A stretch of DNA of 64,000 nt from Promethearchaeota archaeon. GTDB lineage: Archaea; Asgardarchaeota; Lokiarchaeia; Sigyniarchaeales; SOKP01. The position numbers and the translations under genes are program-made. Shown in pieces: positions 437-9,490 of the stretch; position 1 is the first letter of the stretch; the number at the start of each line of letters is the position of its first letter. Below the pieces are notes generated by a model. The model had not been told where the DNA came from. It saw only the letters and a program-made list of their open reading frames with translations, and ran no database searches. The DNA is taken from the NCBI GenBank assembly GCA_019058445.1, contig JAHPZA010000006.1, forward strand, positions 1,056,001-1,120,000, in the 5' to 3' direction.

Positions 437-1792
437 CTATAATACAACTTGCTTGTAAGCTTTTTCAAACCGTTCAACTGCAAAAGATACATCTTCTTGC
501 TTAGCTCCAATCGCAGCATTCATCACAATATAGGGTGTTGGGTAATATTTACAACAAGTTCCAAAAATAGATTCGCCAGAACTGTAGACTCTTGGTCCTG
601 TTACTCTTAAATTGTATAAAGCACCTCCAAGTGCGGTTAATTGCTCTTTTTTTAGGTTATCAAGAGAAACTGCTACTGCCACAGGATTAAATATTTCTAA
701 TACTCTTTCATTAATGGTTTTTGCGGTTTCTCTTAATTTTTCTTCTAGAAGGTTACGATTAAATTGTTGCTGTTCAATTAGTTTTTGATATCCATTGATT
801 CCTAAAGATAGCATAGAAATTAAAAAATTGACCACAGGAGTAGCAGATGCTCGACCCGCATATGCCTGACTGATTTTTGTTATCACTTCTTCCCGAGGTG
901 AGGCAATGACTGCACCACCGACTGGTGTGAGGAAATTTTTATCAGTAGATTGAATGATTACATCAACTCTTCCCGCATCTATTGCAGATCGTATTAATTT
1001 CATCCATTCCGGGCTTTGTACTCCGTATGCATTAATTATGATATGCAGGAGTTTTTTGTCTTTGGCAAATTTGCTAATTTCTTTAATATCATCATGTTCC
1101 CGTGGAGGGAAGAAACTGGTTAAAGAGATAATTGCGAAACATTCTGAATCTAAGTTTTCCTTAATATCTTCTATGGGAATCCTTACCGCATCGCCAAATA
1201 CTTTTCCTTCAATTATTTTTGGCGTAAATCCCATTAAAGCAATAGCTTTTAAAAGCGATTTATGGTCTACTTGTGGTACTAATATTTTAGTCTTCTTAGA
1301 GCGAAATTCTGGTTTTAACGCTCCTAAAGATAAGGCTAAAGACATCCCAGTACATAAGGGGATGACTATTACCTTACTAATATTAGGCAATCCAAAGTTT
1401 TTCAGAAAATTTCGAGCTAAATAATTGGTAAGTTCATACATTATGGACCCTCCAGGTGCTTTTGGCTGGGGTGCCGTTAAAAATCCGCTTCTGCCTACTC
1501 CATGACAAAACCCCGCGCTAGTTTTAAGATGTAGTCTAGACGCAATTCGAGCTTCTCTTTCCCCAACTCTACTTGCTTGAGAATCTTTATCAGTGTCCAT
1601 GTTTGAAAGCGTTTGAAGTAAGAATTCAATTTGATCATCGCTCCAAGGTTCTTTAGGAACGTTTTTCTGTTCGAATAAAATCTTTATTGGTTTTAAGAAC
1701 TCATTCAGTACTAACTGCCCTCTTTTGAGCATATTTTCAGGAATTTGAGTTTGACTAAAATAATCTATAATTTTACTATAATCTACCAACAT
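437..1792 (-). CDS. spcS: O-phosphoseryl-tRNA(Sec) selenium transferase (SepSecS)
   Basis: Motifs MDTDKD, GEREAR, HGVGRSG, QPKAPG, QSTDKNFLTPVGG (PLP lysine) and YAGRAS. tRNA-Sec and SelB lie nearby. Confidence 0.96.
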   Translation of the reverse strand: MLVDYSKIIDYFSQTQIPENMLKRGQLVLNEFLKPIKILFEQKNVPKEPWSDDQIEFLLQTLSNMDTDKDSQASRVGEREARIASRLHLKTSAGFCHGVGRSGFLTAPQPKAPGGSIMYELTNYLARNFLKNFGLPNISKVIVIPLCTGMSLALSLGALKPEFRSKKTKILVPQVDHKSLLKAIALMGFTPKIIEGKVFGDAVRIPIEDIKENLDSECFAIISLTSFFPPREHDDIKEISKFAKDKKLLHIIINAYGVQSPEWMKLIRSAIDAGRVDVIIQSTDKNFLTPVGGAVIASPREEVITKISQAYAGRASATPVVNFLISMLSLGINGYQKLIEQQQFNRNLLEEKLRETAKTINERVLEIFNPVAVAVSLDNLKKEQLTALGGALYNLRVTGPRVYSSGESIFGTCCKYYPTPYIVMNAAIGAKQEDVSFAVERFEKAYKQVVL

Positions 1793-3658: not shown

Positions 3659-3759
3659 GATAACATCTTAATCGTATTACTTTAAAAAATTATCGATAAT
3701 GTATCTTATCTTGATTATAAGCTCAAAAATTTCAGATAATCTCTTGAAGGATGAGAAAA

Positions 3760-3917
3760 TGGCGGCCCTCGAGGAGATTTTCAAAATGTAGGGTATTTCC
3801 CAACGATTATCGAACTCCTATCCCTCCGCAGGATAACTGGGTTTGAAGCCCAGCGTCAGAGACCACTTATCGTTGGAGATCGAACCGATCTCAATACAAT
3901 TCCGACCGTCAAGGGCC
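3760..3917 (-). tRNA. selC: tRNA-Sec (UCA) with two non-canonical introns (about 3867-3900 in the D-arm, about 3778-3808 in the T-loop)
   Basis: 9-bp acceptor stem GGCCCTTGA/TCGAGGGCC, G discriminator and encoded CCA. After splicing: 7-bp D-stem with 4-nt loop, anticodon arm GCTGGG-CTTCAAA-CCCAGT, long variable arm, 4-bp T-stem GGAG/CTCC (9/4 fold, 93 nt). Both introns fold as BHB motifs. Confidence 0.93.
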
Positions 3918-3944
3918 ATATTAAATAATAAAATTTAGTGTGTT

Positions 3945-4015
3945 AAAAGAAATTTATGGTTTATTATTCAAATTATACTATTTTATAATCTTCAGTTTCT
4001 TCAGGTTTTTTGCCT
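3945..4015. repeat. 71-bp direct repeat, copy 1
   Basis: Aligns ungapped to 4763-4833 with 7 mismatches. The minus strand encodes GKKPEETEDYKIV*. Confidence 0.9.
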
Positions 4016-5026: not shown

Positions 5027-5707
5027 TTATTGAACAATTTTATCTCTAATGTCATTACATTTAATTCTTCTACATCCGGGCGTCATTAATCCAGCTTTAT
5101 AGACAGAATCGATAAAATTCACTATTATATGGGATGTCGCTCCAAAAATTACGTATTTTTTCTCATTAGGTGCCCGATAATTAAATTTGCCAACACTTAT
5201 TAAATCTTTTTTAATATAATAAGTCCTTTCTCGGTAATTTTTTTTATTTGCAAAAAATGTTATAGGGATTTTTATTATTTCTTTTACTTCTTCATCTTGT
5301 TTGAGCATTGTTTGATTTTGATCAACAACATAGCAAACGACGGGAGTTATGATGAATCCTTTTGGCGTTAAATGATCATCAAGGCAGCCTAATAAATTGA
5401 TTTTCTTTCTTGGAATACCAAGTTCTTCTTCTGTTTCTCTAAATGCAGTATCAATATATGTGTTATCAAATTCAGGATCAACTTTTCCTCCGGGAAAAGA
5501 CATTTCACCAGCATGTTTATCATGTTCTCTCTTTGTTCGTCTAATTAAAACCAGATCATAAGGTTTATCTTTATAGGGGATAATTAAAAAGGCTATAGCT
5601 GAATTTACAAAAGGTTCCTCTCCCATAGTAAGCCTATCTGGAGAATTAAGAGCTTTTAATTTACTTTTTATTAAATATTCATCAAATTTAAAGTTCGAAG
5701 TGTCCAT
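5027..5707 (-). CDS. Nudix hydrolase, CoA pyrophosphatase (NudL/PCD1) family
   Basis: HAGEMSFPGG motif, Nudix box AFRETEEELG, IFGAT. Confidence 0.9.
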   Translation of the reverse strand: MDTSNFKFDEYLIKSKLKALNSPDRLTMGEEPFVNSAIAFLIIPYKDKPYDLVLIRRTKREHDKHAGEMSFPGGKVDPEFDNTYIDTAFRETEEELGIPRKKINLLGCLDDHLTPKGFIITPVVCYVVDQNQTMLKQDEEVKEIIKIPITFFANKKNYRERTYYIKKDLISVGKFNYRAPNEKKYVIFGATSHIIVNFIDSVYKAGLMTPGCRRIKCNDIRDKIVQ

Positions 5708-5714
5708 TTTTTTG

Positions 5715-6425
5715 TTATTTTAATTTATCAGTAATTTGATCTCTATATTTTAAAAAATCTTTCAATTCTTTAATCTCATCTGGATTAAATCTTCTTATTC
5801 CAAGCTTAGACAATTTTAAACCGTACACCAGCTCAATAAAGCTTACAATCAAGTACGCAGTAGCCCCCCAGATCGTATAGGTTTTATTAGAGATTTTATC
5901 CTTATAATTAAAATAAAATACCGGCAGTTTCTTTCCTGCTATATCGAATGTTTGCTCTCTGAACTTCTTTTTATTTATAAAAAAGTCAATGGGCACTTTT
6001 ACAATTGCTTGAACCTCTCTTTGATCTCTTATCATGTCCTGATCTTCTTTAATAATACCGATAAAGGGAGTAATAATGTATTGGCTCATGGTAGGAAAAT
6101 CATGAAGGCACCCCAAAATTTTCACGTTCTCTCTGGGAACCCCAATCTCTTCTTCAGTTTCTCTTAGTGCGGTATCCATTAAGGATTTATCTTTAGGATC
6201 TATTTTTCCTCCTGGAAATGACATCTCACCACGATGTTTTACACCTTTATTAGTTCGATGAATAACAACTAACTCATAGGGTTTATTTTTATAGGGAATT
6301 ATAGTGAATAACACTGCTGAAGGTGTAAAAAACTCATCTTCAATAATAATTCTTTCTGAAGAATCATACGTATAGAGTTTTTTAATGATTAAATCTTCGT
6401 TGAATATTAAGTCTAAATTGTCCAT
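5715..6425 (-). CDS. Nudix hydrolase, CoA pyrophosphatase family (tandem paralogue)
   Basis: HRGEMSFPGG, ALRETEEEIG, IWGATA. Confidence 0.92.
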   Translation of the reverse strand: MDNLDLIFNEDLIIKKLYTYDSSERIIIEDEFFTPSAVLFTIIPYKNKPYELVVIHRTNKGVKHRGEMSFPGGKIDPKDKSLMDTALRETEEEIGVPRENVKILGCLHDFPTMSQYIITPFIGIIKEDQDMIRDQREVQAIVKVPIDFFINKKKFREQTFDIAGKKLPVFYFNYKDKISNKTYTIWGATAYLIVSFIELVYGLKLSKLGIRRFNPDEIKELKDFLKYRDQITDKLK

Positions 6426-8086: not shown

Positions 8087-9490
8087 ATGGATATTAAGAA
8101 TAAAATCCCGATTCATATAGGATTATTCGGGCATATCGACTCAGGAAAGACGAGAATTGCTGCTGTTTTATCTGAAATAATCTCAACAGCAGGAATTGAT
8201 GCTCATCCGCAAAGTAAAGAACGAGGAATTACGATTGATTTAGGTTTTACAAGTTTTATCATTGATAAATATCTGGTTACTTTAGTAGATGGTCCTGGTC
8301 ATGCTGATTTGATTAAAATAAGTGCTTCTTCAGTAGAAATAATAGATTGTGCAATATTGGTTATTGATATCAATAAGGGCCCTCAGGTCCAGACCGGAGA
8401 GCACCTTATAATGATTGATTCATTAAAAATTGAAAATATAATCGTAATTCTCAATAAAATAGATATTTTCCAAGGAGATATTAATGAGGAGATTGAAAAG
8501 ACAAAGAAATTCTTTGCATCTACCATTTTTGGCTCAAATATCCCGATCTTTGCCGTATCTGCGAAAGCAAAAGAAGGCTTCGAAGATTTACGACATGGTA
8601 TTTTAAATACCATAGAATCTTTAGAAATTGAAAGAGATTATGGAGACGATATCATTATCCCTATTGATCACCATTTTTCTATTAAAGGTATGGGAGCGAT
8701 TATAACAGGAACTATTTTAAAGGGTAAATTAAGGTTAAATGAAACCCTAGAAATACTACCTCTAAAAACATCAGGAAGGATTAAAAACATTCAGATTTTT
8801 CATCAGAATGTTGATTCTGCAAAGGCAGGAGATCGAGTTGGTATAAATGTTAAAAACTTAGACGTTAAAAAAATTTATAGAGGATGTATTGCCACTAATA
8901 ATCCAAATGCGTTTGATTATTGTGATATATTAGAAATAAAAGTGAATAAAAATAAGTTATTTAAACCTGAAACTCAATTTGGGACACAAGTACATGTTAC
9001 AATAGGAATGTTTACAACTACTGGAAAAATATATCCCTATTTTGAATTGGACAAAAAAAAGATTCAAAGTAGTGCTGATAAGAAAGATATTGAGTTTAAA
9101 GCAATACTATGGTTAAATGAGAAAGTTTTGATCAATAAGGGAAAATCAATTATGCTCCTGAGTCGTTTAGATTTGCCTCCAACGACGCTTAGGATATTAG
9201 GGTCTGCACAGTTAATAGAAATTCATAAAGCACCACCTTTACTTCATAAGTTCAAAATAAAAAAAGGAAAAATTCAAAAGGATTTAATTTGTATAGGGCT
9301 CGCTCAATCTGCAGCTGGTGCAAAAAAAATTGTGGGCAGGCAACTAGAATCACCTTTTACTAAAATCTTGGACACTTTTGGAACCAAAGGAGCTGTAATC
9401 GTAGGAGTTGAAAGCACGGATATTGTGGTAAAGAAAGGCGATCCGGTTGTTTTAAAGGAATTAAGAAGTTTTTATCTAAAAAAGATTTAA
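8087..9490 (+). CDS. selB: Selenocysteine-specific elongation factor (aSelB/EFSec)
   Basis: GHIDSGKT, PQSKERGITIDLGF, DGPGHADL, QTGEH, NKID, IDHHFSIKGMG, RLDLPPTTLRI; Sec context. Confidence 0.94.
   Translation: MDIKNKIPIHIGLFGHIDSGKTRIAAVLSEIISTAGIDAHPQSKERGITIDLGFTSFIIDKYLVTLVDGPGHADLIKISASSVEIIDCAILVIDINKGPQVQTGEHLIMIDSLKIENIIVILNKIDIFQGDINEEIEKTKKFFASTIFGSNIPIFAVSAKAKEGFEDLRHGILNTIESLEIERDYGDDIIIPIDHHFSIKGMGAIITGTILKGKLRLNETLEILPLKTSGRIKNIQIFHQNVDSAKAGDRVGINVKNLDVKKIYRGCIATNNPNAFDYCDILEIKVNKNKLFKPETQFGTQVHVTIGMFTTTGKIYPYFELDKKKIQSSADKKDIEFKAILWLNEKVLINKGKSIMLLSRLDLPPTTLRILGSAQLIEIHKAPPLLHKFKIKKGKIQKDLICIGLAQSAAGAKKIVGRQLESPFTKILDTFGTKGAVIVGVESTDIVVKKGDPVVLKELRSFYLKKI

Follow-up and report, generated by a model that had tools for sequence, protein, structure and literature searches.

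The minus strand between positions 3760 and 3917 of the window (the whole 64-kb stretch of DNA analysed here) reads, in this Lokiarchaeia-type Asgard archaeon, as a tRNA-Sec interrupted by two inserts. This raises the question of whether the locus is a single functional selC gene whose transcript is spliced twice. This reading is very likely, given the layout of the gene, the exactness of the intron boundaries, covariation and the presence of the machinery genes. The features, in the direction of transcription, are listed below.

3943..3955, minus: promoter-like A/T-rich motif AAATTTCTTTTAA, 26–38 nt upstream of exon 1
3901..3917, minus: exon 1, 17 nt; the 5′ strand of the acceptor stem (9 nt), two linker bases and the first 6 nt of the D-stem 5′ strand
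3867..3900, minus: intron 1, 34 nt; inside the D-stem between its sixth and seventh base (linear 17/18, approximately Sprinzl 15/16)
3809..3866, minus: exon 2, 58 nt; the last D-stem base, D-loop, D-stem 3′ strand, anticodon arm (UCA), variable arm, T-stem 5′ strand and T-loop up to position 59
3778..3808, minus: intron 2, 31 nt; in the T-loop at 59/60
3760..3777, minus: exon 3, 18 nt; U60, T-stem 3′ strand, acceptor 3′ strand, G73 and a genome-encoded CCA
3756..3759, minus: TTTT run directly 3′ of the CCA, read from the sequence; putative transcription stop

The two inserts were cut out in silico, and ARAGORN identified the resulting 93-nt RNA as tRNA-SeC(tca). The fold of lowest energy (−46.6 kcal/mol) shows a perfect archaeal 9/4 cloverleaf. 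It has a 9-bp acceptor stem, a 7-bp D-stem closed by a 4-nt UGGU loop, a 6-bp anticodon stem with the 7-nt loop CUUCAAA (anticodon UCA), a long variable arm and a 4-bp T-stem, and it ends in G73 followed by CCA. A preliminary description of the locus had proposed introns of 34 and 31 nt and a 93-nt 9/4 tRNA with a UCA anticodon, a 7-bp D-stem and a GCCA end; every one of these is exact in the sequence and in the fold. The CCA is encoded in the genome (window 3760–3762), as it is in 77 of the 79 orthologues with enough flanking sequence. This contrasts with a 2022 review (PMC9499178), according to which archaeal tRNA-Sec genes do not encode CCA. The TTTT run that follows it is likely the transcription stop. 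The upstream motif would correspond to a BRE/TATA element, and variants of it are also found upstream of orthologues, both with introns and without.

The uncut gene escapes detection. ARAGORN found no tRNA in the raw 64-kb window, and Rfam gave no match on the raw DNA at gathering thresholds, in line with the preliminary expectation that standard scanners probably miss the gene. At a permissive threshold, the tRNA-Sec model RF01852 (gathering score 47 bits) scored the raw gene at 28.1 bits by way of a false acceptor stem. Intron-less orthologues served as proxies for the joined sequence on this model. One of them (L096), which differs from the joined sequence only by a compensatory change between G-C and A-U in a single T-stem pair, reached 62.1 bits, and eight others scored 51–63 bits. 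Among relatives, the form with the D-stem intron only scored 37.9 bits on Rfam, under the cut-off, and the form with the T-loop intron only gave no match.

If the inserts are introns, their ends should be recognisable by the splicing endonuclease, and a bulge–helix–bulge (BHB) motif is present at both. At intron 1, the central helix H pairs GUCG of the exon with CGAU of the intron, and the bulges are GA^A and AA^G. The inner helix h′ has 3 bp and is extended by a 7-bp hairpin, and the outer helix h has 2 bp only. The boundaries carry one ambiguity, as moving both cuts one base earlier gives an identical product. In an alignment of 38 distinct sequences, 96.5% of the cells in this motif pair, compared with 29–42% for slid partners. 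Changes on both sides are seen at 8 of 13 pairs, including pairs of the hairpin. The H helix passes from C-G to U-A via U-G across the relatives. All four in-register H pairs form in 42 of 48 distinct genes with a D-stem intron, and in at most eight at any slid offset. Because GUCG is also part of the D-stem, folding this BHB costs 4.9 kcal/mol over the structure of lowest energy of the precursor, and the probability of the H pairs is 0.001. With GUCG shared in this way and the motif not the lowest-energy state, the BHB of intron 1 is a relaxed motif that competes with the D-stem and would need refolding or capture by a protein.

A second family of D-stem introns was observed in relatives of the genus g11 (L099, L100, L124 and L125). 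These introns measure 32 nt, pair exon GUUA with intron UAAC and have a longer 3′ bulge of approximately 5 nt. They may represent an independent gain at the same site. A further locus, L069, resembles this family in its exon and its length; the helix did not fit.

The motif at intron 2 is built on the T-stem, the four base pairs of which (GGAG/CUCC) serve as helix h. The H helix pairs exon UUCG with intron UGAA, the bulges are AU^A and AA^U, and the intron has an internal hairpin; in the present genome, one base pair of h′ adjoins the bulge and the hairpin follows. In the unconstrained ensemble, the pairs of the H helix have probabilities of 0.83–0.92. Across 43 distinct sequences, 87.9% of cells pair (51–64% with the partners slid), and the covariation score is 0.44 as against 0.12–0.19. 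The four H pairs of the T-loop intron are all formed in 23 of 48 genes, and at slid offsets in five at most. The BHB of intron 2 is well formed and stacked on the T-stem; judged by h and h′, both motifs are nonetheless relaxed forms. The elements that had been proposed for them at the outset (GTCG/CGAT with bulges GA^A and AA^G; TTCG/TGAA with bulges AT^A and AA^T, at 59/60) are all present in the sequence.

The comparison with orthologous genes provides the strongest evidence. The locus was detected in most of the related genomes searched at the DNA level (41 at first, then 135), and the orthologous regions were aligned to the joined sequence with long insertions permitted. The census comprises the full-length genes from 96 genomes (84 distinct sequences), and the intron configurations are distributed as follows.

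No intron: 35 genomes
D-stem and T-loop introns: 34 genomes, seven genera
D-stem intron only: 14 genomes
T-loop intron only: 3 genomes
Anticodon-loop (37/38) and T-loop introns: 11 genomes

The insert boundaries are invariably exact across the census, and every gene measures 90 nt to the discriminator once the inserts are removed. Intron 1 is precisely missing from the intron-less and T-loop-only orthologues, and intron 2 from the intron-less and D-stem-only ones. The inserts are thus more than chance, because orthologues lack one or both at exactly these boundaries. The census yields 57 distinct mature sequences, in which 99.1% of the cloverleaf cells pair. Compensatory changes are seen at 19 of the 32 pairs, among them acceptor pairs between exon 1 and exon 3. 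All 13 pairs of the acceptor and T-stems hold throughout these 57 sequences, with many compensatory changes. Between relatives with two introns, the exons are 93.5% identical and the introns 67–72%. Several relatives have exons 100% identical and introns 62–94% identical, and exon 2 is 97–100% identical in many relatives. This contrast, drawn from the sequences, fits spacers that would be spliced out rather than parts of the mature RNA.

Three sites (D-stem, anticodon loop at 37/38 and T-loop at 59/60) account for at least five intron configurations of selC within one family, and some configurations differ between genomes with identical exons. The family's third tRNA-Sec intron site is represented by loci L071–L081, in relatives G106, G109, G111, G112, G119, G120, G123–G125, G142 and G147. 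Two relatives yield more than one copy. G064, assembled as a single 3.3-Mb contig (C1), has two different tRNA-Sec genes, at approximately 778 kb (L100) and approximately 1145 kb (L099), both with a D-stem intron. In G020, an interrupted and an intron-less copy lie on different contigs, which could reflect a mix of strains or contamination. It is conceivable, though on balance we doubt it, that selC offers a natural time series of recent gain and loss of BHB introns in which the D-stem intron perhaps regulates or limits the rate of tRNA-Sec maturation. The D-stem must unfold before intron 1 is cut, so both the maturation of the tRNA and the synthesis of selenoproteins might be subject to such control.

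The genes around the locus and elsewhere in the genome indicate that a Sec-decoding tRNA is needed. Two of them flank selC in the window.

437..1792, minus: SepSecS (O-phosphoseryl-tRNA(Sec) selenium transferase); TIGR03531, 477.8 bits (cut-off 224.85)
8087..9490, plus: SelB/EFsec (Sec-specific elongation factor); TIGR00475, 242.3 bits (cut-off 242.25)

SepSecS is on the same strand as the tRNA and lies approximately 2 kb downstream of it. SelB, the score of which is just at the cut-off, is on the opposite strand approximately 4.2 kb away, and selC is placed between the two. The SelD gene contains an in-frame TGA within the motif HGUSCK, so the cell needs a tRNA that decodes Sec. A PSTK-like gene scored 149 bits, below the curated cut-off of 290.5. 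The claim in the preliminary description that Sec decoding here needs two splicing events is supported by the comparative data, the interrupted gene being the sole tRNA-Sec candidate found in the genome. Two adjacent Nudix/CoA-pyrophosphatase-like paralogues (5027–5707 and 5715–6425, both minus) were also noted between the tRNA and SelB; they score 81 and 102 bits on NF007980, both below its cut-off.

The enzymes for splicing are also encoded. The genome has one EndA gene of 202 aa at C9:770313–770918 (PF01974, 68 bits; PF02778, 29.4 bits) and an RtcB ligase (574 bits). No EndA beta subunit emerged from Pfam searches or from a genome-wide protein search, and one weak additional EndA match was rejected as a methyltransferase-like ORF. 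Asgard archaea have been reported to possess an (αβ)2 EndA carrying a broad-specificity L1 loop, and only one EndA gene was found here. A search for spliced RNA in four RNA-library runs produced three contigs, all from relatives, with no spliced joints. In these contigs (runs X15, X16 and X17; window 3808–3884), exon 2 is flanked by the unspliced D-stem intron, and in two of the three exon 3 is joined directly, without a T-loop intron. Contigs of relatives labelled as metatranscriptome may be DNA carry-over or precursor RNA, and they have no bearing either way on splicing in the present organism.

Taken with the gene anatomy, these components suggest a pathway. A precursor of approximately 160 nt would probably be transcribed from the promoter-like motif to the T-run after the CCA. 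EndA would cut both BHBs, the first of which would borrow the 5′ strand of the D-stem while the second would be stacked on the T-stem. RtcB would then join the three exons into the 9/4 tRNA-Sec(UCA). After serylation and phosphorylation, the tRNA would be converted by SepSecS, encoded nearby, and brought to UGA codons by SelB, whose gene is also a neighbour.

Other readings of the two inserts have to be weighed against splicing. They might be retained, the D-stem insert in particular as an extra hairpin, to give an expanded tRNA-Sec; Sun et al. (2021) report “unusual insertions” in some Lokiarchaeia tRNAsec and do not call them introns. The lowest-energy fold of the precursor does keep 6 bp of the D-stem with the insert stacked as a hairpin, and the RNA-library contigs of the relatives contain the D-stem insert. 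However, a BHB with 3-nt bulges is preserved at the ends of the insert, whereas the interior diverges freely, with lengths of 29 to 34 nt. The insert is missing altogether from close relatives whose exons are identical, and it therefore plays no part in the mature tRNA. If retained, it would also push aside the 4-nt D-loop and disrupt the 7-bp D-stem, a stem that the title of a reference cited in PMC5330540 describes as the PSTK binding site. We regard retention as very improbable. The 9-bp complementarity between the two introns, which might point to their joint processing in the manner of split and tri-split tRNAs instead of two separate BHBs, carries next to no weight with us. It pairs UCCAACGAU in the 3′ part of intron 1 with AUCGUUGGG in the 5′ part of intron 2 (window 3877–3869 and 3807–3799, minus strand), and it is the helix that Rfam used as the false acceptor stem in its 28.1-bit match to the raw DNA. 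Shuffling these AT-rich introns gives a helix of equal length in approximately 10% of cases (p≈0.1), most of the 34 relatives with two introns either have no such helix or have it at another place, and its geometry does not put 3-nt bulges 4 bp apart. We therefore rejected it as a mechanism; it is a chance complementarity, neither significant nor conserved.

The gene might also be a pseudogene inactivated by the two insertions, with Sec decoding lost or served by an unassembled copy. The assembly leaves some room for this, being 92.6% complete in 10 contigs, and the double copies of G020 (interrupted and intron-less) and G064 (two on one contig) give it precedents. The preliminary description had named an intron-less selC elsewhere in the genome, combined with transcripts that are all unspliced, as speaking against the twice-spliced gene. 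At this level of completeness no intron-less selC was found: RF01852 gave no match over its cut-off in the whole genome, and blastn of the joined sequence against the genome returned the three exons only. Inactivation is also at odds with exons that match those of several relatives at 100% identity and preserve all the cloverleaf pairs, with a SelD that still needs UGA to be read as Sec, with the conserved position between SepSecS and SelB, and with a two-intron form common to 34 genomes in seven genera. A pseudogene is thus extremely unlikely, and a functional gene spliced twice very probably accounts for the locus.

Part of this arrangement has been seen before. Mariotti et al. (2016; PMC4989117) described a Lokiarchaeota tRNA-Sec from Loki's Castle with a 31-nt T-loop intron, and Santesmasses et al. 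(2017; Secmarker, PMC5330540) and a 2022 review treat a single T-arm intron as the only archaeal tRNA-Sec intron known. The present gene shares with that from Loki's Castle the 9/4 fold, 7-bp D-stem, 4-nt D-loop, G73 and UCA anticodon, as well as the position and 31-nt length of the T-loop intron. In both, EFsec lies a few kilobases from the tRNA-Sec on the opposite strand. The Loki's Castle gene was described with one intron, whereas the present gene has a second, 34-nt intron in the D-stem. Multi-intron tRNA-Sec genes are likewise on record in Asgard archaea. The supplementary tRNA table of Valentin-Alvarado et al. (2024; PMC11291895) gives three introns for the tRNA-Sec of Atabeyarchaeia-1 and -2, which were found with Secmarker (tRNAscan-SE, 0 introns; R2DT, 3). 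They differ from the present gene in belonging to another Asgard class and in having three introns, and the table rows seen carry no intron coordinates. The passages of that article that were searched contain no comparative or BHB analysis of tRNA-Sec introns. A preprint (bioRxiv 10.64898/2026.10.13.758758) reports that D-arm inserts in Asgard tRNAs are systematically overlooked by tRNAscan-SE, occur at BHB motifs above chance and have been gained repeatedly. Its focus is different, namely the Freyr-, Jordi- and Atabeyarchaeaceae, and selenocysteine tRNAs appear in its methods only.

Neither the D-stem intron of Lokiarchaeial tRNA-Sec, as an intron, nor the five-state polymorphism of selC introns across one family is described in the literature searched. 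Earlier work has already documented the splicing mechanism, the T-loop intron and Asgard tRNA-Sec genes with several introns. Multiple non-canonical introns are known in tRNAs of the Thermoproteales and other Crenarchaeota, where they are cut by an (αβ)2 EndA and the exons are ligated by RtcB. Those genes share with selC the BHB or relaxed BHB introns at non-canonical sites, including the T-loop and the D-arm, and the presence of two or more introns per gene. They belong to another phylum, none is a tRNA-Sec, and here one EndA gene is detectable. With the T-loop intron published and multi-intron versions catalogued in a sister group, the finding is a modest extension of known biology, and it leaves the picture of Sec biology and tRNA splicing unchanged. 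Its practical bearing lies in genome surveys, which judge the use of Sec partly by the detection of tRNA-Sec. The raw selC is missed by ARAGORN and by Rfam at its curated threshold, and Sec use in Lokiarchaeia can therefore be under-called. The census of 96 genomes, with its exact boundaries, is also a data set on the gain and loss of archaeal tRNA introns.

The tRNA genes of this 4.6-Mb genome present a similar difficulty as a whole. ARAGORN found only 5 uninterrupted tRNA genes. Allowing for canonical introns gave 23, of which several are doubtful. With so few uninterrupted genes, interruption seems to be the rule in this genome, and for most of its tRNA genes the form of the interruption seems to defeat standard finders. 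One call made with the intron option, a “tRNA-SeC” at C1:27020–27126 (L004), was rejected on its 7-bp acceptor stem, 5-bp T-stem and short D-stem. Its UCA anticodon is false and arises from ARAGORN's different placement of the intron. With the intron at the canonical 37/38 position, the anticodon is UGA (serine), and the gene is that of an ordinary tRNA with a long variable arm.
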